Source: Poseidonia sp. (GTDB taxonomy: Archaea; Thermoplasmatota; Poseidoniia; Poseidoniales; Poseidoniaceae). Taken from it: a stretch of DNA of 64,000 bases. This document shows, piece after piece, positions 4,825 through 17,444 of the stretch. Made by a program: the position numbers and the translations under genes. Position 1 is the stretch's first letter. Each line of letters begins with the position of its first letter. The stretch lies in contig JAUREJ010000002.1 of the NCBI GenBank assembly GCA_030827475.1, positions 18,027-82,026 of the forward strand, written 5' to 3'. The notes below the pieces were generated by a model, which saw nothing but the letters and a program-made list of their open reading frames with translations, ran no database searches and was not told the origin of the DNA.

Positions 4825-6468
4825 TTACTCATCCTCAAGGGACTCGTAACTCTTGAAGAACTCGTCAATGTCGATGACGCCGTCTTCGTTCTCGTCGGCC
4901 TTGTGGAAAATGACCCGTGATTCGTCTCTGGTGAACGTGAAACCAAGGGCTTTGAGTGCGTTCTGGAACTCACGAAGCGTAAGGTGATTCTTGTCCCCGA
5001 AATCGGCAGCGTGAAACGCAGCAAGCCTTCGGTCGTGCTCTGTGGTGCTGGCGATCCCGAAGAGTTGCCGGAAGGTGGTGAAGGGCGTATCTTGGTGAGC
5101 GACGTAGTGCTTCCTACCGTAGAGCGCATAGGTGACGATGCCCGCTACCAGGGCGACGCCTCCGCCGATGTAGGCTTTTGAACCCATAAGTGAGATCAGG
5201 AAGGCCCCTGCAACGATTCCCCAAATGTTGAGGTACGGGTAGAGCGGGCCTTTGTAGGCCGGTTTCCAGTCGTGGACATGACTGGTTTGGCGCAAAACGA
5301 TGACACAGGAATTGATGAGCATGAAGATCATGATTTTGAATCCGGATGCGAGTTTCACCACGTCCTTTAGCGGCACGAAAACGATGGCAAGGCCCATGGC
5401 TAAGCCCGTGATAAGAATCGGAAAGTGAGGGGTTTCAAATCGAGCGTTCACTTCCTCCAACGGCTGTGGCAGGAGGTTGTCTCGTGACATGGCAAACAAG
5501 AATCTGGAAGAGGCGAGGATACCGGCCAAAGCCATGGAGATCATGGTCAACACCGAAATGATGGCGACGAGAACGCCAAACTCAGAGCCTGCGATGTGTT
5601 CTGCGAAGACCGAGATAGGATTTTCAATGACTTTGCCGTCTTTCATCCACCACTCGCCGGGAAGCACAGCCATCATCGCAAAAGCCAGCGCTGAGTAAAC
5701 CACCGTTGCGATGGCGAGGGACACCAAGATGCCTGCGGGCAGGTTCTTTTCGGGGTTTTTGACCTCGTCCCCGATGGCTGCCACTTTGGTGACCCCTGCA
5801 TAAGCAACGAAAACGAAAGCTGCGGTCTCTGCAAGCGTCCACATGTCGGTTGAGAAGGCCCCTTCGATGGGGACAGATGCGTCAAAATCAGCCGAAAACA
5901 ACGCCATGACGCACATGAGTACCAGCAAAGTAACCGTCACGAGCACGATGGGAGTTTGGATGGCTTTGACCTTGGACACGCCAAGAATGTTGACGAACGT
6001 GATGAGAACCAATGCCGATAACGAAAGGGTGTACATGCTCAGTTCGATGTCAAAATACGCCGTCACTACAGCGAAATAGGCCGAGAAACCGATGAGGGCG
6101 AAGGCGGATTTGAGCAGGAAAGACGACCAGAGGCCGAGCCCGCTGATGGTTCCAATCAAGGGGCCGTAGGTTCTTTCCAAGTACACGTACGACCCGCCGC
6201 TCGAGGGCATGCCCGAGGACAATTCAGATTTTGAAACGGCTCCCGGAAGCACCACGGAAGCGGCGAGCAAAAAGGCCAACCAGATTCCGGGTCCCATGAT
6301 TTCAGCGGCAAACGTCGGCGTGACAAAGATGCCGGGTAACATGGCCGAGAGGGAGATAATCACCACGCCTGCGAGTCCGATGGTCCGTGCGAACGTTGTT
6401 TTGAGTTCGGCACCTGCGGATTTGAGATCTCCTTTTGCGACGCTCTTGATGATGTTTTCAACGGCCAT
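4825..6468 (-). CDS. APC-family amino acid permease with C-terminal EF-hand pair
   Basis: About 12 TM helices; APC motifs GIFVTP, ELSSGMPSSGGSYVY, FVAYAG, EVKNPEKNLP, SRFLFAMSRD, TPH. Tail contains a canonical EF loop DENEDGVIDIDE (4861-4896). SD-like GGGGGTGA upstream. Confidence 0.9.
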   Translation of the reverse strand: MAVENIIKSVAKGDLKSAGAELKTTFARTIGLAGVVIISLSAMLPGIFVTPTFAAEIMGPGIWLAFLLAASVVLPGAVSKSELSSGMPSSGGSYVYLERTYGPLIGTISGLGLWSSFLLKSAFALIGFSAYFAVVTAYFDIELSMYTLSLSALVLITFVNILGVSKVKAIQTPIVLVTVTLLVLMCVMALFSADFDASVPIEGAFSTDMWTLAETAAFVFVAYAGVTKVAAIGDEVKNPEKNLPAGILVSLAIATVVYSALAFAMMAVLPGEWWMKDGKVIENPISVFAEHIAGSEFGVLVAIISVLTMISMALAGILASSRFLFAMSRDNLLPQPLEEVNARFETPHFPILITGLAMGLAIVFVPLKDVVKLASGFKIMIFMLINSCVIVLRQTSHVHDWKPAYKGPLYPYLNIWGIVAGAFLISLMGSKAYIGGGVALVAGIVTYALYGRKHYVAHQDTPFTTFRQLFGIASTTEHDRRLAAFHAADFGDKNHLTLREFQNALKALGFTFTRDESRVIFHKADENEDGVIDIDEFFKSYESLEDE

Positions 6469-6577: not shown

Positions 6578-7999
6578 TCATGCTGGCATGTGAACGATAA
6601 CCTTCATTTCCACTGCAATCGGCGTGGGCAACGCATCGATAGCGAGTGTCGTTCGGGTGGGACCCACCTTTCCGAGCGTTTCGGCCCATACTTCGTTGTA
6701 CCCTTGGAAGTCACGTTTCATGTCAACAAGGAACGTTGTGACGTCAACCACCTGCTCCATGGTCGCTCCGGCTTCCTCCACGATGCGTTTGACGTTCTCT
6801 ACAACGGCACGGGTCTGTGCCTTGATGTCGTAAGGCAGGGGTTCTCCGTTTTTGTCATGTATTGGCCCTCCGGGGATGGCGTTTGTTCCAGGTTGTCGCG
6901 GGCCAACGCCAGAGAGAAACAGCATGTCTCCAACTCGGCGAGCGTGAGGGTATGCTCCGACGGGTTTGGGAGCGGTGGTGGTGTTCACGGAACCCTTTGC
7001 TTCCGTTGGTTCCCACAAGTCCGGTCCGTTTGACGTTTCTTCGGTGACTTCGTCGTTTGTTTGACTCTGAACTTGGTCCTCTTCGACGATGTCCAGGACG
7101 TCCCGTTCGCCGTGGTAGTACTCAACGTCGTCTTCATCGTACTCCTTGTCGCCAACTCCGCTGGAGGCAGGGTCAAGATGAACGACGGCTCCACCTGCGC
7201 CGTGAATTGCTTCGTATGCCATCACACGACCCGTCAAGTCGTTCCGGTTTCCGTTCATGGCCGAAAGCCACCACATGGGCTTGAAAGCGACCACCTTCTG
7301 CACCCGAATTTGTTGGTGAATCGTTCGCGAGAGCTGGCCGACATCTTCAAGCCGCCCCTGTTTGAAGAATTCCAGAATTTTCCGGTTCCACTCGTCATCT
7401 TTGAGGGAGTGAATTTTGTCATCTTGAGGCGAGATGAAATCCGTAAACATCCGGTTGGAAAGCGACATGGCGGTGATGGCCACGGCGCGCCGTCCTTGGG
7501 CCTTGATGACGTCGAGACACGACTTTGCAAGAACCGTGGTTTCGCTTCGGTTGGCGTACATGTTTGAAGAAACGATGACAGCGGGGATGCTGTTGTCGGG
7601 GTTCAGCAGTGTCAACGCCACAACCGAACCGACATCGATGGGGAACCCTTTGTAGTTCACACAGCGGCTTTGTAACCCGCGTTTGCGATTCGCTTCGTCC
7701 CATGCATGGGCGAACTCAGCGTCAATGTTGAACGAGTAAGGTATGGAGCCCAAATCGTGAAAGTCATGGTCCACCATCACCCATTCCGGGTTCGGGTCGG
7801 ATTGAATCTGATGGCCGATGATGGACGGCCAGGTCGTCGAGTACACGATGAGCAAATCCGCTTCAAGATCTCGAATCGTTTGGGCCGCTTCATCAAATGC
7901 GTCCCGAAGCCTCTGCCAGCCGGGGTTTTGGTCCGGAGCGAGCACGGTGTGAGGGTGGACGGGCACGACAAACGAGGCCACGACTTCTCCAGAACTCAT
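6578..7999 (-). CDS. amnA-amnD: Fusion: 2-aminophenol 1,6-dioxygenase alpha subunit (LigB class III extradiol family) + acidic linker + RidA-family 2-aminomuconate deaminase
   Basis: The N-part matches the AmnA/CnbCa pattern (LIVYSTTW, VNYKGFPID.GS, SNMY, DDEWNRKILE, FKPMWW, GGAVV). The C-part matches the NbaF/AmnD-like RidA pattern (PKPVGAYPHARRVGDMLFLSGVGPRQ, FLVDMKRDF, PTRTT, IAVEMKV). Confidence 0.85.
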   Translation of the reverse strand: MSSGEVVASFVVPVHPHTVLAPDQNPGWQRLRDAFDEAAQTIRDLEADLLIVYSTTWPSIIGHQIQSDPNPEWVMVDHDFHDLGSIPYSFNIDAEFAHAWDEANRKRGLQSRCVNYKGFPIDVGSVVALTLLNPDNSIPAVIVSSNMYANRSETTVLAKSCLDVIKAQGRRAVAITAMSLSNRMFTDFISPQDDKIHSLKDDEWNRKILEFFKQGRLEDVGQLSRTIHQQIRVQKVVAFKPMWWLSAMNGNRNDLTGRVMAYEAIHGAGGAVVHLDPASSGVGDKEYDEDDVEYYHGERDVLDIVEEDQVQSQTNDEVTEETSNGPDLWEPTEAKGSVNTTTAPKPVGAYPHARRVGDMLFLSGVGPRQPGTNAIPGGPIHDKNGEPLPYDIKAQTRAVVENVKRIVEEAGATMEQVVDVTTFLVDMKRDFQGYNEVWAETLGKVGPTRTTLAIDALPTPIAVEMKVIVHMPA

Positions 8000-8904
8000 G
8001 CTTCGCTCACCTCATGGGCATGGCACGGCCATTCCACCACGGCGTTTCCCGTGCCGATGATGGTGCCGTACCCGTGAAGGATGGCGGGGTAATCCGGGAC
8101 GTCCAAGGTGGACAGAAGCCATGAGAGGCCCCCTCCGTCACTTTCCGCGATGGCCTGTTCGGTAAACTCCGGCATCTCATCGAGGATGCGTTGAGCCTGG
8201 CCGCTTCGCATGTAATCGATGATTCGCATGTCCCAAAGGTGCATGGCATGACTTGTGATGTGTTCTTTGCTCATGTCTTCGGGGACTTCGGATTCGGTGG
8301 TGAAATGCCGGTGGGAAAGGGAATTGCTGGCGAGGACGACCACGCGCTTTCCACTCGCTTCGATCGCCTTGCGCGTGACTTTGCCCAATTCGATCATGAT
8401 TTCCTGCATGACCTCGACCGAGTAGTACGCCGTTGAGCGGTTGCTTGAAATCACGACAAGGGGTTTGTCCCATTTGGGATTGAACAAATGGCCGGTGGTG
8501 ATGGTGCCGTAATCGACACGGAAGTCGGGGTTTTCCATCATCTTCACCGGCAATCCGGCGGCCTCTGCCTCGTCGTGAATCGCCTTTGCGAGTTCAACGT
8601 CCACGTTCATGTTGTAGTGGTAGCGAAACAGATTTGGGAAAATGGGGTCGACGGAGAGCCCTTCGAAGTGTTCCAAGCCCAAAAAATGGGTTCCGACATA
8701 CGTCTGCCAGTGCGGGGAGAGCAAAACGATGGCGTCGTAATCGATGTCGGCGAGTGAAGCACGAAGGCGTTCGTAGCCCCAGCGGAGTTGCTCCCATCCG
8801 CCTTCGGCTACAGGTTCGTTTTGGGGTGGGTTTTCCGCATACACCAGATGCGGTGGGTGAGGGGCGAGGCATCCTGCGACAATTTGCCCTTTGGCCATGC
8901 CCAT
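7996..8904 (-). CDS. amnB: 2-aminophenol 1,6-dioxygenase beta (catalytic) subunit
   Basis: Recognisable AmnB/CnbCb sequence: LAPHPPHLVYAENPPQNEP..GGWE.LRW.YER, SPHW, SVDPIFPN.FRY, DYGTITT.HL, SNSLSH.HF, PEDMSKE, YGTIIGTGNAVVEW. Fe ligands and catalytic His appear retained. ATGA overlap with the alpha gene at 7996-7999. Start may be the ATG two codons later. Confidence 0.9.
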   Translation of the reverse strand: MGMAKGQIVAGCLAPHPPHLVYAENPPQNEPVAEGGWEQLRWGYERLRASLADIDYDAIVLLSPHWQTYVGTHFLGLEHFEGLSVDPIFPNLFRYHYNMNVDVELAKAIHDEAEAAGLPVKMMENPDFRVDYGTITTGHLFNPKWDKPLVVISSNRSTAYYSVEVMQEIMIELGKVTRKAIEASGKRVVVLASNSLSHRHFTTESEVPEDMSKEHITSHAMHLWDMRIIDYMRSGQAQRILDEMPEFTEQAIAESDGGGLSWLLSTLDVPDYPAILHGYGTIIGTGNAVVEWPCHAHEVSEA

Positions 8905-9486: not shown

Positions 9487-10308
9487 TCACGACGTGTACG
9501 ATTCCTCGTCGCTGGGGAACGCTCCGGCGCGGACATCATCGCAGTATTGCTTGAGAGCGCCGTCAATCGATTCGGCGAGATTGAGGTAGCGCCGCAAAAA
9601 CCGAGGAGAGAAATCCATCGTGATGCCCAACAGGTCGTGCAGCACCAACACTTGGCCGTCAACGTCCGGGCCAGCACCGATACCGATGGTGGGAATGTTG
9701 AGGGCCTCGGAAACCCGCTTGGCGAGGTCACGGGGGATTTTTTCGAGCACGATGGCAAAACATCCGGCTTCTTCAAGCACCTTTGCATCGGCGATGAGTT
9801 TCTCGGCCTCTTCATCCTCCTTAGCCCGAACGGAATAGGTTCCAAATTTGTAGATGGATTGCGGCGTCAACCCCAAATGACCCATAACGGGGATGCCAGC
9901 GGTCAAAATGCGTTGAACGGACTCGACGATTTCTGCACCGCCCTCCAATTTGACGGCATGACCGCTCGATTCTTTCATGATTCGAATCGCTGACTCCAAT
10001 GCTTGGCGCGAGTTGCCCTGGTAGGTTCCAAAAGGCATGTCCACCACCAAGAGCGCCCGGTCAACAGCACGTTCCACGCACTGGGCGTGGTAGATCATGT
10101 GGTCAAGCGTCATCGGGACGGTCGTGACTTGGCCGGCCATCACGTTGGAAGCGGAATCGCCGACCAGGATGACGTCGACGCCAGCTTGGTCAACGAGTTT
10201 GGCCAACGAGTAATCATAGGCGGTGAGCATCGTGATTTTTTCACCGGCCCGCTTCATCTCCTGGAGGGTGTGCGTTGTGACCTTCCGGGCTGCGCCGTAA
10301 ACGGACAT
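9487..10308 (-). CDS. panB: 3-methyl-2-oxobutanoate hydroxymethyltransferase
   Basis: [46 protein letters not shown] motifs. ATG at 10308 with GGTGGAG upstream. Confidence 0.95.
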
Positions 10309-10350
10309 GGTTTCTCCACCGTCCATGGTGTTTTCAAATCCTCGCCCGAC

Positions 10351-11079
10351 TCAGTCGGTTTTGTCGTACAGGCCTACGAGTTGACTTTGCAGCTCGTTCA
10401 TCGCTTCTTCAGCCGTAGTGCAGGCGAGCAGTTGCTGTCGCCCTTCAAGGTCGTTCAGACAAAGGGCGGCGATGTTGTAAATCGAGGTGCGGGCCTCGCT
10501 GATCTGCTCCTCGCACAAGCGCTCAATCAAGTGGTCAAGCATGCTGCTATCGACGTTCATACCGTCCCCGGCCCGTCGTATGACCTCTGCGGCAAACCCC
10601 TCGAGAACGGTTTGGTCGGCATCGGTCAAGGCCCCCTCCTCCGGCAGGTAACGGACCTTTCCCGAAACGTACAGGCGTTGGTGCGGATGGTTTTCTGGCA
10701 CCCGCTCGAGCAAGGTGTGGACGTCGGGTGCAATGCCCCCTTCAATGAGGTCGGCAAGCGAGGGGTCGTGAAGTGGGGGAAGCGCGGGTTCAATCACCTG
10801 TTCAATGAAGAACCGACGGCCACCCTCAACGGTGATGAAGTGGTTCATGCCCCGGGTTTCATGGCGAACAATCACCGCTTCACAGCCGTGTCGCCGCGGA
10901 CCGTCCCAGCCGTTGGTGGGCTCAAACGGATCGTTGAGCACCAAACCGAAAGGGCGTTCGTCGAGGATGCAGGTGTCCAGCATTTGGCGGTAGCGAGGTT
11001 CGAAGACCCGCAACTCTTGGGTTTCTCCAGGGAAGAGGACCATGGGAAGGACAAACAACGGGAGCGTGTCTTCATCCAT
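10351..11079 (-). CDS. Stand-alone LON peptidase substrate-binding (LON N / PUA-like) domain protein
   Basis: LPLFVLPMVLFPGETQELRVFEPRYRQML..C...RPFGLV, G.RRF motifs. Start chosen at MDEDTLPLF; the ORF-track start overlaps the ALDH gene. Confidence 0.8.
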   Translation of the reverse strand: MDEDTLPLFVLPMVLFPGETQELRVFEPRYRQMLDTCILDERPFGLVLNDPFEPTNGWDGPRRHGCEAVIVRHETRGMNHFITVEGGRRFFIEQVIEPALPPLHDPSLADLIEGGIAPDVHTLLERVPENHPHQRLYVSGKVRYLPEEGALTDADQTVLEGFAAEVIRRAGDGMNVDSSMLDHLIERLCEEQISEARTSIYNIAALCLNDLEGRQQLLACTTAEEAMNELQSQLVGLYDKTD

Positions 11080-11117
11080 GCGCAAAGCAAACATCGGTGG
11101 CCTTTGAAGATGTGTTC

Positions 11118-12566
11118 TCAGGGTTGTTGAATACAGACGTTGGTCATCTCGGAGAAGAAGGCCATCGACCAGTCGCCCCCTTCCCGGCCGACGCCGGACT
11201 GCTTGACGCCACCAAACGGCGTACGCAGGTCTCGGTTCAGCCAAGTGTTTACCCAAACGATGCCCGTTTCCATCCGCTTTGCAAAAGCATGACCTCGCTC
11301 GATATCCGCAGTCCACACCGAGCCCGCCAGCCCGTATTCCGTGAGGTTCGCCATCTCCACCGCTTCGTCCTCGCTGGCGAACGTATGCAAGGTCACGACC
11401 GGGCCGAAAATCTCCTCGGTAGCCGTGCGGCAGGATGCAGGGAGGCCGGCAATCACGGTGGGGCGAAGGAAAGCACCTTCGGAGGAGACGCCGACGACAG
11501 GTGCCTGTTCGCTCAAACCTCCGGTGAGCACGGTGCCGCCTTCTTCGATACCGAGGCGAATGTAGGATTCCACCTTGGCCTTGTGGTCTTGGGAGATGAC
11601 CGTGCCCATTTGGGTCGCCTCGTCCCGGGGGTCTCCCAAGCGAAGTTCCTCCACTTTCTCCACGAATTTTGCGGCGAAGATGTCGTAAATCGTTTCATCC
11701 ACCAAAATGCGGGAGCCGCACAGACAGACCTGCCCTGAATTGGTGAAAGATGCCCGCACCAGGCTCTCCATGATGTCGTCGAGGGGCGCGTCATCAAGCA
11801 CCACCGTGGCGTTTTTGCCGCCCAATTCAAGAGAGAGTTTCTTGAACATGGGCGCAGCGGTCGCCGCAACCAAGCGTCCGGTTGCCGTTCCCCCGGTGAA
11901 CGAGATGCCGCGAATGTCGGGATGTTCGACGATGGCTTGGCCCACCTCCGGGCCGTACCCGTGAACAAGGTTGAACACGCCGGCGGGCAAGCCCAAGCCG
12001 TGAACGGTTTTGGCGAGGAAGTCCGCCGTGAGCGGGGTGAGCTCCGAGGGTTTGGCGACGATGGTGTTGCCCATCAACAAGGCCGGGGCAACTTTCCACG
12101 ACAGCAAATAGAGCGGAAGGTTCCAAGGCGTGATGAGCCCCACAACACCCACCGGTGAGCGATGGACGTGGTTCACGGCTCCGTGATCGGAAAACGTGGG
12201 GTCTTCGTGACCTTTGGCGTGGTGAGCGAAGAACCGAAAGTTAGCGACGGAGCGAGCAGCGTCCACTCGCCGAGCCAGTGAAATCGGTTTGCCGGTGTCG
12301 AGGCTTTCGAGTTGAGCGATGGTTTCCGCCTCCGCCTCCAAGGCGTCAGCAATGCGTTCCAGCCATGCGATGCGCTGCTCCATCGTCGTGCTGCCCCAAG
12401 CCGTCGCTGCTTCTTTGGCCGCCTCCGTGGCTCGTTTGACATCGATGGCCTCTGAACGGGCTACTGCGGTGATGACGGTGTTGGTCGCTGGGTTGATGGT
12501 GTCCAAGGTTTTGCCCGAAGCAGCCTCAACAAAGGCGCCGTTGATGTAGTTGCGGACAGGCTCCAT
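11118..12566 (-). CDS. amnC: 2-aminomuconate 6-semialdehyde dehydrogenase (ALDH8A1/AmnC-like)
   Basis: RSVANFRFFA, PWNLPLYLLSWK, KPSELTP, FTGGTATG, LELGGKN, GQVCLCGSR (catalytic Cys), EEIFGPV, RDLRTPFGG. These match the hydroxy/aminomuconate semialdehyde dehydrogenase subfamily. Confidence 0.85.
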   Translation of the reverse strand: MEPVRNYINGAFVEAASGKTLDTINPATNTVITAVARSEAIDVKRATEAAKEAATAWGSTTMEQRIAWLERIADALEAEAETIAQLESLDTGKPISLARRVDAARSVANFRFFAHHAKGHEDPTFSDHGAVNHVHRSPVGVVGLITPWNLPLYLLSWKVAPALLMGNTIVAKPSELTPLTADFLAKTVHGLGLPAGVFNLVHGYGPEVGQAIVEHPDIRGISFTGGTATGRLVAATAAPMFKKLSLELGGKNATVVLDDAPLDDIMESLVRASFTNSGQVCLCGSRILVDETIYDIFAAKFVEKVEELRLGDPRDEATQMGTVISQDHKAKVESYIRLGIEEGGTVLTGGLSEQAPVVGVSSEGAFLRPTVIAGLPASCRTATEEIFGPVVTLHTFASEDEAVEMANLTEYGLAGSVWTADIERGHAFAKRMETGIVWVNTWLNRDLRTPFGGVKQSGVGREGGDWSMAFFSEMTNVCIQQP

Positions 12567-13684
12567 CAGTTCACCTCTGGGTCAAAATGCCAGCGGTCTC
12601 TGTCGGGGTCCCATTCGTCCCACGTCGGCACGGTTTCCAAGATGTCAAGGTAGGCATCGGGCACGATGCCCGGCACGATGAAGGCTTTTTGCCGGTGCAA
12701 AGGGTAGGGGTTTCGCAGGTTGATGCCCAAGACTCCGAGCAGGGCTCGGGCGACGTACCATGTGGCTTGAGAGTTCCATCCGTGGGCGATCTTGACGACG
12801 ATACCCAGGCCTTTGGGGTAGTCGGGATGTTCAATGGCCATGCCGAGCAAGCCGTCCGCTCCTTCTTTGGCGATGACCCGACCTTCGCCGGCCTTGAGCA
12901 CCGTTGAATCGAGCCGGTTGAACCCTCCAACGAGGTCAGGATGGCGAACCATGGCCTCCCAAATCCAATCGTCGTCCTTGTCACGAACGAGCCCGGCATA
13001 GATTTGCGCAAGTTCGGAAACGGTGTTGGAAACGGTCGGCAAACCGCACCCGTCCTTGGCAATGCGCAACGGCTTCCAATCCTCGCCGAGGTAGGTTCGC
13101 AGTTGCTCCATGTAAGCGTGGAAGACCTCGTGGGTGGGCAGGGTGTAACCGGCGCGGTTCCAACCTTTCTTCCGACAGCCTCGGAGGATGGCGGCGTGCT
13201 CTCCCGAGCAGGTGTGGAACCAACGGCGAGGCCGCCGCACCTGTCGGCCAAACTGAATCAGCGGGACGTCGAGCGGCGTCAGCATCAAGGGCCATTCGGA
13301 TTCGTTCAAGAGCGACTGGGCGGCCGCAACGTGCTCCGTATCTCCGTTGTGCGACGCCACAGCGATGGCTTTCTGTTCCCACGAACAATCGGCGAGTTCT
13401 TCCGTGAAGGCCTTGAGCATGAAGGGCTTCATCATCGAACGACCGTAGCAGAGGACGTTACCTCCAAAGGAGTGGATCACCTCGTCACCGTGTGCCCAAG
13501 CCACGGCGCCGTGAATGGTGGTTTCCGATACGCCGTTTCGTCGGTAATCCACCAGCGGCTCCCAAGCCACTTCTCGCCCCGTGGGAATGCCCTCCACCTG
13601 CTCGCCAAGCGGTGAGGACGGATACATGGCCGAACCGGGTTTTCCGGGTTGAACGGCGGAGTAGGTGTCGTGATGGATGCCCAT
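12566..13684 (-). CDS. Class 3 (Rhizobium etli-type, asparaginase II family) asparaginase-like hydrolase, variant active site
   Basis: RSMMKPF, ASHNGD, TCSGEH (canonical NCSGKH), DGCGLP, AKEGADG (canonical AKLGADG), GIVVKI..G. TGA/ATG one-base overlap with the ALDH at 12566. SD GGGAGG upstream of the ATG at 13684. Confidence 0.85.
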   Translation of the reverse strand: MGIHHDTYSAVQPGKPGSAMYPSSPLGEQVEGIPTGREVAWEPLVDYRRNGVSETTIHGAVAWAHGDEVIHSFGGNVLCYGRSMMKPFMLKAFTEELADCSWEQKAIAVASHNGDTEHVAAAQSLLNESEWPLMLTPLDVPLIQFGRQVRRPRRWFHTCSGEHAAILRGCRKKGWNRAGYTLPTHEVFHAYMEQLRTYLGEDWKPLRIAKDGCGLPTVSNTVSELAQIYAGLVRDKDDDWIWEAMVRHPDLVGGFNRLDSTVLKAGEGRVIAKEGADGLLGMAIEHPDYPKGLGIVVKIAHGWNSQATWYVARALLGVLGINLRNPYPLHRQKAFIVPGIVPDAYLDILETVPTWDEWDPDRDRWHFDPEVN

Positions 13685-13685
13685 C

Positions 13686-14936
13686 TCACGACCTCCCCAA
13701 GAGGGCTTCAACGCGGGGAACGACGCGCTCCATGTAGGCCGTCATGTTTCGACACACGCGCTCGGAATCGTGGTTGAAGAAATCAAACCACGCCATGATG
13801 CGGTCGTCGGCGTGAAAGCGCTCAACCATCTGCCTCGCTACTTCCTCAACGTTGCCGATGAGGGCGTTGTCCGCAGCACGGTTCACTTTGTCGGGGTCGA
13901 TGGTGCCTTCAAGGGCGTTCCAGTACGCACTCAAGGCGCGCTGTGCCTCTTCCTGAGCAGCCTGAGATTGTTGCTCCGGTGTGAGCCCCGCCTCATCGTT
14001 GAGGAAAACAAAACTCGTTCGGGGCATGTCGGACCGTTTCCATTCACCGCCGTCGGCGTGGTACACTTCGGCCATGCGCTCGTGCGTGGCGTCGATGATT
14101 TCGGGCGACGTGATGGAGAGATTGAACACCTTGACGGGAAGAATGCTGTTGACGAAGGTCTGGGCCTTCGGGTCGTGCGTTCCTGCAACCAAGCCGAGCA
14201 GTTCTCTTCGGAAATGGCTTGGCACGATTTTCAGGTCTTCAAACACGTATCGTGAGGGGATGGCGATCGAGTTCGGGCGGTGTTCGAGGGCCTCGAACTC
14301 CACAGCAGCATCCTGCACGGCCAGCCAATCCTCGTCGCGTCGGAAGTTGCCCCGTGTGAGCACGGTGGACCGAATCATCTCGGAATTGATGACATCGCCC
14401 CTCAGCAAACGAAGGAAAATCTCGGCGGCTTCCATGAAAATTTGCCCTCGAAGCGCGGGCCAAGCCGCCTCTTCAACGGCGGTCCTCGGCACGACGCCAT
14501 AGGGGCGCGCCATGAACTCAAACCGGCCTGCGGAAAATCCGACGTGAAGCCGGCGATGTTCACTCGGCTCCAATCCGTGGAGGCTGAGAACGTTGGCGAT
14601 GCGTTCGGCTTGGGCGATCGGTCCACCCGATGCGAGGATGGAGATGACCGCACTGCCGATCTCGATGTTTCTCGTGCGGCGAAACGATTCCAAAGCGAGT
14701 TGGGGGAAATCCGTGCAGAGACCGACTTCACCTTTCCAATGCGGCACAACGGGTTGATGGTTGCTCTTTTGCGTCTCAGTTGAAAGGTGCGCTTGGGCGA
14801 TCCATCCCGTTTTGAACCCGAGTTGGTCTGCGCACACCAGTTGGTGGAAGTAGTTCCGTAGCATGGTGGCTTCGTCGGGAATGACCCCGTTTTCGTCAGG
14901 GGTCTGGGAAATGGAGAAGAAGATGTCATGTTCCAT
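13686..14936 (-). CDS. Luciferase-like (LLM class) flavin-dependent monooxygenase
   Basis: ADQLGFKTGWIAQAH, TRNIEIGSAV, AERIA, RLHVGFSAG..EF, and C-terminal ALIGNVEEVARQM...ERVVPRV; typical bacterial-luciferase TIM barrel. Stop lies 1 nt from the next start. Confidence 0.85.
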   Translation of the reverse strand: MEHDIFFSISQTPDENGVIPDEATMLRNYFHQLVCADQLGFKTGWIAQAHLSTETQKSNHQPVVPHWKGEVGLCTDFPQLALESFRRTRNIEIGSAVISILASGGPIAQAERIANVLSLHGLEPSEHRRLHVGFSAGRFEFMARPYGVVPRTAVEEAAWPALRGQIFMEAAEIFLRLLRGDVINSEMIRSTVLTRGNFRRDEDWLAVQDAAVEFEALEHRPNSIAIPSRYVFEDLKIVPSHFRRELLGLVAGTHDPKAQTFVNSILPVKVFNLSITSPEIIDATHERMAEVYHADGGEWKRSDMPRTSFVFLNDEAGLTPEQQSQAAQEEAQRALSAYWNALEGTIDPDKVNRAADNALIGNVEEVARQMVERFHADDRIMAWFDFFNHDSERVCRNMTAYMERVVPRVEALLGRS

Positions 14937-14989
14937 GCCCACGCACCGATTCCCGCCACGGCGCCATGGCTCATAATGGGTATGGCCCT

Positions 14990-15835
14990 TCAGGCTGAGC
15001 CTTCATCGCCGGGCGTATTTCTCAGTTCGGTCAAATCATGAATCCGCTGGCGAAGCTGCGCAGGTGCCGGAATGTCAACGGCCAGGAATTCATGTAGCGA
15101 ATCGGACAGCACGAGCATGGCGGTTTCGTAGTCCTGTTGGATTTCAGCGATATCGGCTAGACCCCAACGCGCCACGAGTTGACCCGAAAGGCTGCCGAGG
15201 TCTTGGGCTCGCTCAAGGGATTGGTTGAACAGGTCTTGAGCGGCACCAAACTCCCCGATGGTCGCTTGACAGTGAGCCAGGTCGGCGATGGCTTCCATCT
15301 GCCCTTCTTCGTCCTTGAGTTTGGTCAGCAATTCAAGCCGTTCGGTCCCGATGGCGATGGCGGTGTCCTCGTCGTGCTGCCGTTTTGCGATGCTCATCAA
15401 CAAGGCCATTCCGTACGCCATGCCCTGAAAGTCTTCGACCGCCGTCCGCAAACGCAGGGCGCGCTGAGCCGTAGCCCTCGCTTCGTCGAGGTGACCTTCG
15501 GACATTTGGACCAGGGCGACGTAGTGTTGAACGGCAGCGGTGAGCGATTGTACTCCCTCCATGCCCTCGGTTTCTTCGGCGAGCGCCAGAAAACTATCCA
15601 CCTTGGCGTTCATCCGTTTCAAACCTTCAAACCGGGCCCAACCTCGCTCCTCATCGTTCGTTGCCACCGAGGTTGCGTGGTCAAGCAGGCGTTCAACCAA
15701 CTCGGCTTCGCCGACGTCCTCTGCAAGGGGCATCAACCGGAGGGCCAGGGAGGTGTTGATGTGGTCCATGGATCCACCGGAGGTCAACACCTCGAGGATT
15801 TGGCGAGCCCGTTCGGGCGAAACTTCACCGTTCAT
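14990..15835 (-). CDS. TPR-like alpha-helical repeat protein
   Basis: Repeated helix pairs (A..HY..LV....GHLDEA...AQRAL; ADLAHCQA..GEFGAAQDLFNQSLE; WGLADIAE.QQDYETA). SD GAGGTGA; 9 nt downstream of the SDR stop. Confidence 0.75.
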   Translation of the reverse strand: MNGEVSPERARQILEVLTSGGSMDHINTSLALRLMPLAEDVGEAELVERLLDHATSVATNDEERGWARFEGLKRMNAKVDSFLALAEETEGMEGVQSLTAAVQHYVALVQMSEGHLDEARATAQRALRLRTAVEDFQGMAYGMALLMSIAKRQHDEDTAIAIGTERLELLTKLKDEEGQMEAIADLAHCQATIGEFGAAQDLFNQSLERAQDLGSLSGQLVARWGLADIAEIQQDYETAMLVLSDSLHEFLAVDIPAPAQLRQRIHDLTELRNTPGDEGSA

Positions 15836-15844
15836 GCGTTCACC

Positions 15845-16660
15845 TCAAATCGAGCGTAGTCGGCCGCCGTCAACGGCGAGGCTCACGCCACGTATACCGC
15901 CAGAGGCGGGCAGGCATAGGAAAGTGATGGCGCTGGCGGTTTCGAGCGGGTCAATGAGACGACCGATGGGGACTTGGTCCAGCCAACCTTTGCGAACATC
16001 GGTTGCGGATTTCCCCGTTCGCTCTTGGATCGATGCGGAAAGGTTGCCCAAGCGTTCGGTATCGGTAAAGCCCGGCAAGACGTTGTTGATCGTCACGCAG
16101 GGCGGCAATTCGTTGGACAAGGATTTCGCCCAGGACGCCATGGCTCCTCGCAACGTGTTGGAAAGGCCGATGTTCGGTATGGGCTCTTTCACGGAGGTCG
16201 AAATGATTTGGACGATGCGTCCGTATCCTTCGGCTTCCATACCGGGAACTGCGGCCTTCACGAGGGTGTGAGCGGCGTGGAGGTGGCGCTTGAAAGGGGC
16301 CTCAAAGTCGTTGACCTCGTTGCCCAAGAGCGGTCCACCCGGAGGGCCACCTGCGTTGTTGATGAGCACGTGAACCGGTCCGAGAACTTCCGTGGCCGAG
16401 GCAAAGGCGGGTGCGATGCTTTCGGTGTCTTCCAAATCGAGCATCAGGGCTTGATGCGTCCCGTCACCGAGGGTGGAGAGCGTTGCGCACAGTTCGGTAA
16501 GGGCCGCCCCGTTTCGTGCGCAAACGGTGACGTTGGCGCCCGCTTTTGCCAACATTTTGGCCGTCGCTTCACCGATGCCCTTGCTCGCACCGCAGACGAA
16601 GGCGTGTTTGCCTTTGAGCGCTGACGAAGCGTAGGGGAAGTCGTTGCCGAGCAGGTCCAT
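15845..16660 (-). CDS. Atypical SDR oxidoreductase (BKR-like subgroup; the type I recall adjacent to kynurenine-pathway genes)
   Basis: VCGASKGIG Rossmann motif, LINNAGGPPGG, ISTSVKEPI, SNTLR in place of YxxxK, NNVLPG.T.T.RL, DGG. Confidence 0.9.
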   Translation of the reverse strand: MDLLGNDFPYASSALKGKHAFVCGASKGIGEATAKMLAKAGANVTVCARNGAALTELCATLSTLGDGTHQALMLDLEDTESIAPAFASATEVLGPVHVLINNAGGPPGGPLLGNEVNDFEAPFKRHLHAAHTLVKAAVPGMEAEGYGRIVQIISTSVKEPIPNIGLSNTLRGAMASWAKSLSNELPPCVTINNVLPGFTDTERLGNLSASIQERTGKSATDVRKGWLDQVPIGRLIDPLETASAITFLCLPASGGIRGVSLAVDGGRLRSI

Positions 16661-16697
16661 GGTGACGGGATGGCTCCGTAGGTCATAGGCCTTGGCC

Positions 16698-17444
16698 TTA
16701 CAACCAATCGAGCACGGTGTTGAGTTGAACCAACCAATCGTCAGAGGCGACGTCGATGATGTCGTAATGGTCACCGGGCAGCCAAAGCTTCTGGACGTCG
16801 GCACCCTTGGCCTTCATGACCCTCGCATAGGTTTCCGATTGCTCAAGGGGAACGTCGACGTCGTGCTCGCCGTGGAAGAGCAGCACGCTGGTTTGCGGCG
16901 GGTGGTCCACCGGGTTGAGTTGGCGCCAGAGGGTTTCGTTCTCTTCAGGCGAACAACCGATCCACCTTCGGACGGCATCACCATCGTCGGACAGGCGAGC
17001 ACGGTCGGCACCGATGAGGTCCGTCAAGGGTGCTTGAGCAATCGCCAACCAGGGCCGGCGCTCGGCTTTCGCACTCATCAAGAGCGCCAGTTGGCCACCG
17101 GCGGAATGCCCCATGACCATCGAGCGGGTCATGTCGATGCCCGGGAGCAACGCCAACTGTCCCCATGCCCGCAACACGTCGGAGAGGGTGTCCATCCAAA
17201 CCCCTTCTTCGCCTTCCTCCCATCGCTTGAATTCGATGTTCCAAGCGGCGACACCCGCTTCGGCGAGGTCTTCTGCGATGGGTTGCATCAACTCAAGGGT
17301 GTACTTCGTTTTCCAGAAGCCACCGTGAATGAGCATGATGCATGGGATGCCTTCGTCCTTTTGAAACGGCGACGGGTCATCGGGCATGTGGAGGTCAGCG
17401 AACTGCCACGCTTCTGCACCCCACTGCATCCGGTCAACGGCCAT
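16698..17444 (-). CDS. Alpha/beta hydrolase, HGGxW (HSL/arylformamidase-like) family
   Basis: IHGGFW oxyanion motif, GHSAGG nucleophile elbow, D.DVP acid, GDH His. Confidence 0.85.
   Translation of the reverse strand: MAVDRMQWGAEAWQFADLHMPDDPSPFQKDEGIPCIMLIHGGFWKTKYTLELMQPIAEDLAEAGVAAWNIEFKRWEEGEEGVWMDTLSDVLRAWGQLALLPGIDMTRSMVMGHSAGGQLALLMSAKAERRPWLAIAQAPLTDLIGADRARLSDDGDAVRRWIGCSPEENETLWRQLNPVDHPPQTSVLLFHGEHDVDVPLEQSETYARVMKAKGADVQKLWLPGDHYDIIDVASDDWLVQLNTVLDWL

Follow-up and report, generated by a model that had tools for sequence, protein, structure and literature searches.

The window analyzed here, the whole 64,000-nucleotide stretch from a Poseidonia sp. contig, encodes a relative of the class 3 asparaginases, named ASNL, within a cluster of putative aromatic-catabolism genes. 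The fold, residues, gene neighborhood and phyletic pattern of ASNL suggest a serine hydrolase with the fold of the class 3 asparaginases, one that has kept beta-L-aspartyl recognition and has been recruited to a kynureninase-independent catabolism of tryptophan, a reading to which we assign a probability of about 0.58. On balance, and a shade less firmly, we favor the fuller proposal of a third, undescribed exit from kynurenine, additional to those via kynureninase and kynurenine 3-monooxygenase, in which Baeyer-Villiger oxidation by a luciferase-like monooxygenase (LLM) and hydrolysis by ASNL would yield L-aspartate and 2-aminophenol. This exit would be a core trait of the Marine Group II (MGII) archaea that is also found in several bacterial phyla, and ASNL would be the first enzyme of class 3 asparaginase fold with a physiological substrate other than asparagine and with a Cys-Glu-Cys metal anchor. 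ASNL probably represents a known fold in a new functional version, within a pathway that is probably undescribed.

The ASNL open reading frame, read from the window sequence, is real; it lies on the minus strand at 12566-13684 and encodes 372 amino acids. The start codon is the ATG at 13684-13682, with a GGAGG 7 nt upstream. A TTG at 13711, in frame with ASNL, was considered as an alternative start and is unlikely. The ATG lies 1 nt past the stop codon of LLM (TGA, 13688-13686), and the ASNL stop codon (TGA, 12568-12566) has its A in common with the ATG (12566-12564) of an aldehyde dehydrogenase gene (ALDH), a 1-nt stop/start overlap. LLM, ASNL and ALDH are translationally coupled genes.

Pfam searches matched residues 45-323 of ASNL to Asparaginase_II (PF06089) with 167.2 bits (cut-off 25; E=6e-49), and no NCBIfam model claimed the protein. 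With phmmer, the asparaginases ReAV and ReAIV of Rhizobium etli were the sole relatives by sequence among solved proteins (E ~1e-16). The AlphaFold2 model of ASNL (pLDDT 86.9) was searched with Foldseek, and the top 41 matches were all ReAV or ReAIV (TM 0.66-0.71, 23-25% identity, E down to 1e-19), with glutaminases and beta-lactamases far behind. By fold and catalytic residues, ASNL is a member of PF06089. Its N-terminal (residues 1-40, 13565-13684) and C-terminal (residues ~325-372, 12566-12710) extensions are kept in the close archaeal and bacterial clade and absent from relatives of 300-330 amino acids; they were modeled with low confidence and may be interaction surfaces.

The motifs RSMMKP, ASH, TCSGEH, DGC and AKEGAD were read directly from ASNL, and the protein was aligned with ReAV, whose residues are given in the author numbering (the PDB chain tag shifts the count by +6). 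The alignment paired R49, E54, R82, S83, K86 and S111 of ASNL with R12, E17, R47, S48, K51 and S80 of ReAV; C159, E162, H163, Y180, D211 and C213 with C135, K138, H139, Y156, D187 and C189; and D259, K273, A276 and D277 with C249, K263, A266 and D267. The Ser-Lys tandems S83-K86 and S111-K273, as well as R82, D211 and Y180, were invariant across the alignment. All residues that mutagenesis and L-Asn complexes of ReAV assign to catalysis or substrate anchoring are kept in ASNL, apart from the third metal ligand. Because the equivalents of R12, E17, R47, S48, K51, S80, C135, H139, Y156, D187, C189, K263, A266 and D267 are kept, the aspartyl-recognizing half of the ASNL site is intact. The Cys-Lys-Cys zinc site of ReAV (C135/K138/C189) is not found in ASNL, in which C159 and C213 are kept and the lysine is replaced by Glu162. 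TCSGEH, KDGCG and AKEGAD were present in 80 of 80 Poseidoniales species loci, and CSGEH was present in all 121 archaeal and bacterial homologues at least 75% identical to ASNL. The Lys-to-Glu change in the zinc site is real and far beyond chance.

These results agree with most of what a first-pass annotation, made from the sequence alone, had said of the gene. It had described a class 3 asparaginase homologue at this place (leaving the strand unstated) that is coupled to ALDH, keeps the Ser-Lys pairs (RSxxK, ASH, AKxG) and both zinc cysteines, has Glu for ReAV Lys138 (the codon is GAG) and has Thr for the Asn that precedes the CSG motif of ReAV. It had also pointed to a change from AKLG to AKEG. 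AKEG is indeed present in ASNL, but it is no peculiarity of this protein, since AKEGAD was the commonest state of the family (40 of the 58 full-length representatives at 50% identity).

In ReAV, S48 is the nucleophile, and the alpha-carboxylate and the alpha-amine are held by R47, which contacts the carboxylate, and the metal (PMC12292245, PMC12951835); K51 is the base, S80/K263 form the second pair and S48/A266 provide the oxyanion hole (PMC12292245, PMC12951835, PMC11024299). According to the published ReAV structures, the metal takes no part in catalysis and holds the substrate by its alpha-amino acid end and not by the leaving group, and the K138A variant retains ~1.5% of kcat/KM (PMC11024299). 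Since the metal holds the amino-acid end, the changed metal ligand is no direct evidence of a new leaving group; it bears on the amino-acid anchor, which is common to L-Asn and a beta-aspartyl-aryl compound. Judged from the residues, a metal is probably still bound at Cys159/Glu162/Cys213 of ASNL, where it would chelate the alpha-amino acid portion of the substrate. Cys-Glu-Cys may be better suited to neutral pH than a site with lysine as ligand, and Glu for Lys would be a tuning of the metal anchor and not a specificity switch.

We found that the gene order of the window cluster was conserved across 80 Poseidoniales loci and that the LLM-ASNL-ALDH triplet was adjacent in all 80 wherever the contig allows, rearranged loci included. 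In Myxococcota and other bacteria (loci L002, L004 and L005), the ASNL gene is accompanied by genes for tryptophan 2,3-dioxygenase (TDO), a short-chain dehydrogenase (SDR), LLM, ALDH, two LigB-family dioxygenase subunits and RidA. Conservation within the cluster is by far the highest for ASNL, with 76-80% identity between the window and these three loci, compared with 50-69% between archaea and bacteria for LLM, ALDH, LigB, LigB-RidA, SDR and TDO. This conservation suggests either unusually strong constraint or a more recent gene transfer. Relatives with 42-50% identity to ASNL were surrounded by minimal operons, arranged TDO-LLM-ASNL-cyclase (L087), LLM-ASNL-cyclase..TDO (L089), TDO-x-SDR-LLM-ASNL (L090), cyclase-LLM<>ASNL (L093) and LLM-ASNL..cyclase (L096). 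LLM (43-59% identity) adjoins ASNL in L002, L087, L089, L090, L093, L096 and all MGII loci, and in L004 and L005 it lies ~5 kb from ASNL, in an LLM-ALDH pair. A complete MGII cluster, with an ASNL 94% identical to that of the window, was also present on a contig titled Verrucomicrobiales bacterium (L027, NZEQ01000011.1), which is probably a mis-binned archaeal contig.

The formamidase slot of these clusters is occupied either by a eukaryote-like alpha/beta hydrolase, as in the window, or by a cyclase-type enzyme of PF04199 (L004:7354-8004; L087:7927-8565), a case of non-orthologous displacement; both kinds occur among the bacterial loci. Two unrelated formamidase families in one slot are strong evidence that the pathway runs via N-formylkynurenine and kynurenine. 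A profile search detected no PF04199 cyclase in the genome of the window, and the alpha/beta hydrolase was therefore taken as its formamidase candidate.

The phyletic pattern was examined in archaea and in 151 evenly sampled Myxococcota genomes. ASNL was present in 100 and TDO in 99 of the 101 Poseidoniales genomes sampled. Kynureninase (TIGR01814) was over cut-off in none of 41 Poseidoniaceae genomes, including that of the window, and in none of the three bacterial ASNL carriers searched. The window's genome carries TDO on another contig and the formamidase candidate, without kynureninase over cut-off. Among the Myxococcota, 21 genomes contained the ASNL clade and 28 contained kynureninase, and none contained both; TDO was present in 20 of the 21 and 27 of the 28, respectively. 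The mutual exclusion of ASNL and kynureninase among the 64 TDO-positive Myxococcota genomes gave a Fisher p of 1e-6, uncorrected for shared ancestry. By this complementary pattern, ASNL and its LLM together behave as an alternative to kynureninase.

A maximum-likelihood tree of the PF06089 family, with support by SH-aLRT, placed the characterized NCSGKH enzymes on a deep branch separate from that of ASNL (99%). In the LLM-linked clade, the residue at ReAV position 138 was Glu in 12, His in 2, Asn in 1 and Lys in 2 of the 17 representatives, and the Glu state had 1-4 origins on the family tree. The Lys-type relative P0127 (PCSGKH; L090) has TDO, SDR and LLM alongside; P0124 (NSSGNH; L093:7001-7972) has lost both zinc cysteines, yet it adjoins LLM and a cyclase formamidase; and the more basal Glu-type P0157 (L096) has LLM and a cyclase alongside. 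LLM was not found on the short contigs of the Glu-type P0155 and the Lys-types P0137 and P0138, which, like that of P0221, are too short or uninformative for gene context. The Glu motif was rejected as a marker of a new function, since Lys-type P0127, Cys-less P0124 and basal Glu-type P0157 share the same LLM/formamidase context. The first-pass argument from the altered zinc-site motif to a new function does not hold for this reason, and the anchoring role of the ReAV metal and the prevalence of AKEG in the family also count against it. The first-pass suggestion of a neofunctionalized beta-aspartyl-aryl amidase or esterase tied to amn-type catabolism survives without that argument, as the best-supported reading by way of genomic context and phyletic pattern. 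Comparison of the LLM-linked clade with the rest of the family gave only weak specificity candidates (Y47, Y80, K105, D239, W240, W242 and H301). In the sister lineage of P0124, which also includes P0149 and P0164, the motif is NSSG[NH]H and the DGC cysteine is missing, hence no ReAV-type metal site is present.

Kynurenine is asparagine with its amide nitrogen swapped for a C-linked 2-aminophenyl group. Ketones are commonly catabolized by a Baeyer-Villiger monooxygenase (BVMO) and an esterase, with aryl groups migrating preferentially, and type II BVMOs have the LLM fold. The LLM of the window matched PF00296 weakly, and 9 of 12 of its orthologues matched this profile. Its AlphaFold2 model (pLDDT 85) retrieved LLM TIM barrels with Foldseek, including the type II BVMO 4uwm, luciferases and 6ket, and phmmer against PDB sequences returned nothing at E<=1.

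The chemical steps given here to LLM and ASNL are those that we infer from fold, residues, synteny and phyletic pattern. TDO, encoded elsewhere in the genome, and the formamidase would produce L-kynurenine. LLM would insert oxygen into the bond that joins the aryl ring to the ketone carbon, giving O-(beta-L-aspartyl)-2-aminophenol, a compound able to convert to N4-(2-hydroxyphenyl)-L-asparagine by spontaneous rearrangement; both the ester and the anilide are beta-aspartyl derivatives that an asparaginase-type site could hydrolyze. Ser83 of ASNL, activated by Lys86 and assisted by Ser111/Lys273, would attack the beta-carbonyl, releasing first 2-aminophenol and then L-aspartate. The AmnBA-like LigB pair, ALDH and the RidA domain would then convert 2-aminophenol via 2-aminomuconate semialdehyde and 2-aminomuconate to 4-oxalocrotonate. 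The proposed product, 2-aminophenol, is the exact substrate of the AmnBA/AmnC/AmnD-type genes of the cluster, which supports this route, and every conserved cluster gene receives a role in it, the SDR and the tetratricopeptide repeat (TPR) protein aside.

Several observations count against the kynurenine route through LLM and ASNL. The literature searched held no biochemical datum for any member of the PF06089 branch of ASNL or for the cluster LLM; it contained the ReAV papers and nothing on Baeyer-Villiger oxidation of kynurenine, PF06089 in tryptophan catabolism or kynurenine metabolism in MGII. LLM was no closer to BVMOs than to other LLMs (12-17% identity by Foldseek), no flavin reductase for it was identified, and for the aryl leaving-group pocket of ASNL there are only candidate clade-specific residues (Y47, Y80, K105, W240, W242 and H301). 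The MGII cluster is interrupted by panB and a Lon-N-domain gene, and the TDO gene of MGII is not linked to it. The anticorrelation in Myxococcota ignores phylogeny, and 17 of the 64 TDO-positive genomes contained neither kynureninase nor ASNL, reflecting either a further route from kynurenine or incomplete assemblies.

The same tryptophan/kynurenine pathway with another ASNL substrate or another order of steps is a lesser possibility, and we regard it as doubtful; it draws on the fact that the context determines the pathway and pairs LLM with ASNL without specifying the exact substrate. In a first version, LLM would oxidize N-formylkynurenine, ASNL would cleave the beta-aspartyl 2-formamidophenyl ester and the formamidase would act last, in keeping with the formamidase gene following ASNL in the minimal operons L087, L089 and L096; this is a mere variant of the route proposed above. 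In a second, the oxygen would be inserted in the reverse sense, giving O-anthraniloyl-L-serine, and ASNL would release anthranilate and serine. The carbonyl would then lie one atom further from the fully conserved alpha-amino acid anchor, and the product would be anthranilate, yet the partners are of the AmnBA/AmnC/AmnD type for 2-aminophenol, and neither an anthranilate dioxygenase nor a CoA ligase was seen in the clusters. In a third, LLM would hydroxylate the ring and ASNL would be a kynureninase independent of pyridoxal phosphate (PLP), but hydrolysis of a C-C bond is foreign to the Ser-Lys fold. No 2-amino-3-carboxymuconate semialdehyde (ACMS) decarboxylase, an enzyme that this version also requires, was observed among the cluster genes, and HAAO was over cut-off in none of the 41 Poseidoniaceae genomes, a weak negative because no control genome was positive in that search either.

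It is improbable that the cluster degrades another aminoaromatic compound or N-heterocycle, with ASNL cleaving an amide intermediate in the manner of RutA/RutB, in which an LLM opens the ring and an amidase acts next. An LLM, an amidase and a semialdehyde dehydrogenase do reproduce the logic of the Rut pyrimidine pathway, and the unlinked TDO of MGII is compatible with such a substrate. However, TDO and one of the two non-homologous types of kynurenine formamidase are linked to LLM-ASNL in many bacterial loci, TDO accompanies nearly all Myxococcota carriers of ASNL and is near-universal in Poseidoniales, and complementarity with kynureninase is specific to kynurenine. Least credible is that ASNL is an ordinary L-asparaginase converting Asn to Asp and ammonia among neighbors that reflect general amino-acid and nitrogen scavenging: the complete catalytic apparatus with its alpha-amino acid anchor, the amino-acid permease at the end of the MGII cluster and the residual activity of K138A ReAV, by which loss of the lysine need not abolish activity, are set against adjacency to LLM and coupling kept in both archaea and bacteria, even at identities as low as 42%, co-occurrence with TDO in 20 of 21 cases and never with kynureninase in the Myxococcota, a deep branch apart from the characterized NCSGKH enzymes, and the absence of the asparagine-utilization context of R. 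etli (permease and aspartase), no aspartase or ansP-type partner being seen in any locus examined.

Compared with ReAV and ReAIV (PF06089; PDB 7os3, 8cly and 9g66), ASNL is alike in fold, in both Ser-Lys tandems, in the oxyanion-hole positions and in keeping the equivalents of Arg47, His139, Tyr156, Asp187, Asp267 and both zinc cysteines, and it is probably alike in double displacement via a beta-aspartyl-enzyme and in chelation of the alpha-amino acid end. It differs in its low identity (23-25%), its deep branch, the changes of Lys138 to Glu and of Cys249 to Asp, its clade-specific terminal extensions, a TDO/LLM/amn context in place of an asparagine-utilization operon, and a predicted leaving group of 2-aminophenol instead of ammonia. 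In the meta-cleavage pathways of 2-aminophenol (amnBACD of Pseudomonas sp. AP-3 and P. pseudoalcaligenes JS45, and the related cnb/nbz), the roles of AmnB/A, AmnC and AmnD correspond to those of the LigB alpha/beta pair, the semialdehyde dehydrogenase and the RidA-type deaminase that accompany ASNL. The known source of 2-aminophenol there is the reduction of nitrobenzene or chloronitrobenzene, whereas here it would be kynurenine, by way of LLM and ASNL; in addition, the alpha subunit is fused to RidA, and the window showed no AmnE-H genes.

The sequence from aryl ketone to aryl ester to phenol and acid, and the LLM fold, have counterparts in known BVMO-esterase systems, namely 4-hydroxyacetophenone monooxygenase with 4-hydroxyphenyl acetate esterase in Pseudomonas fluorescens ACB and the diketocamphane type II BVMOs. 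Here kynurenine, an amino acid, would be the substrate, and the hydrolase has an asparaginase/beta-lactamase-like Ser-Lys fold, not that of an alpha/beta hydrolase; owing to the ortho-amine, an O-to-N acyl shift is possible, and the compound actually hydrolyzed may therefore be an anilide. Kynureninase (PLP-dependent) would occupy the same metabolic place, removal of the side chain from the kynurenine ring, with a complementary phyletic pattern. It is unrelated in fold, cofactor and chemistry and yields anthranilate and alanine, whereas the ASNL route would yield 2-aminophenol and aspartate.

If the proposal is correct, tryptophan is degraded by a route that is absent from textbooks and databases, in which the side chain leaves as aspartate instead of alanine and the ring leaves as 2-aminophenol. 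The route would be universal in the MGII archaea (100 of 101 genomes sampled), a group that ranks with the most abundant archaea of the plankton. In a considerable fraction of Myxococcota, and in other bacteria, it would take the place of kynureninase. It would change the reading of "asparaginase" annotations in thousands of marine genomes and would be relevant to models of how dissolved organic nitrogen turns over in the surface ocean. ASNL would also represent the first natural alteration of leaving-group specificity in the medically studied class 3 asparaginase fold, and a natural Lys-to-Glu variant of its unusual zinc site.

Table 1. Position of ASNL, its Glu162 codon and the neighboring cluster genes in the window
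Feature	Position	Strand	Evidence or remark
ASNL, class 3 asparaginase-fold (PF06089) hydrolase, 372 aa	12566..13684	-	Pfam, phmmer, AlphaFold2/Foldseek
GAG codon of Glu162, at the position of the ReAV Zn-ligand Lys138	13199..13201	-	sequence and alignment
LLM, 418 aa; candidate Baeyer-Villiger monooxygenase acting on kynurenine	13686..14942	-	PF00296 (weak), AlphaFold2/Foldseek
ALDH, 482 aa; candidate 2-aminomuconate-6-semialdehyde dehydrogenase (AmnC-like)	11118..12566	-	PF00171 at 4e-165
Alpha/beta hydrolase (HGGFW, GHSAGG), 248 aa; candidate N-formylkynurenine formamidase	16698..17444	-	Pfam BD-FAE/Peptidase_S9/Abhydrolase_3
SDR, short-chain dehydrogenase	15845..16804	-	true start probably downstream of 16804
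TPR protein, 281 aa; kept in the MGII cluster only	14990..15835	-	profile search, 80 MGII loci
LigB-family dioxygenase subunit (AmnB-like)	7996..8904	-	PF02900
LigB subunit fused to RidA domain (AmnA-like and AmnD-like)	6578..7999	-	PF02900 and PF01042
APC amino-acid permease with C-terminal EF-hand pair	4825..6468	-	Pfam; ends the cluster

The genes of the cluster follow one another on the minus strand in the order alpha/beta hydrolase, SDR, TPR protein, LLM, ASNL, ALDH, Lon-N-domain gene, panB, LigB, LigB-RidA and permease (Table 1). LigB, LigB-RidA and ALDH make up its ring-cleavage genes of AmnBA/AmnC/AmnD type, their specificities being candidates drawn from sequence. The best NCBIfam match of ALDH was 2-hydroxymuconic semialdehyde dehydrogenase, under its cut-off. 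The LigB protein is 64-69% identical to the copies near ASNL in bacteria, and the LigB-RidA fusion is also found in L002, with two separate genes in L004 and L005. Besides the MGII loci, L002 and L090 also carry the SDR, whose candidate roles are that of a flavin reductase partner or of a reduction after ring opening. The permease stands at the end of the cluster in 48 of the 80 Poseidoniales loci and is a possible importer of tryptophan or kynurenine.

panB and the Lon-N-terminal-domain gene (9487-11316) lie between ALDH and LigB in MGII only and are absent from the bacterial clusters; they look like insertions foreign to the pathway. A gene of ~600 codons with NMO (PF03060) and FabD_helical_ins domains was located near the cluster in each of the three bacterial loci inspected (L002:1-1497, L004:12082-13905 and L005:12818-14638), and its product could be a flavin-dependent reductase of the pathway.

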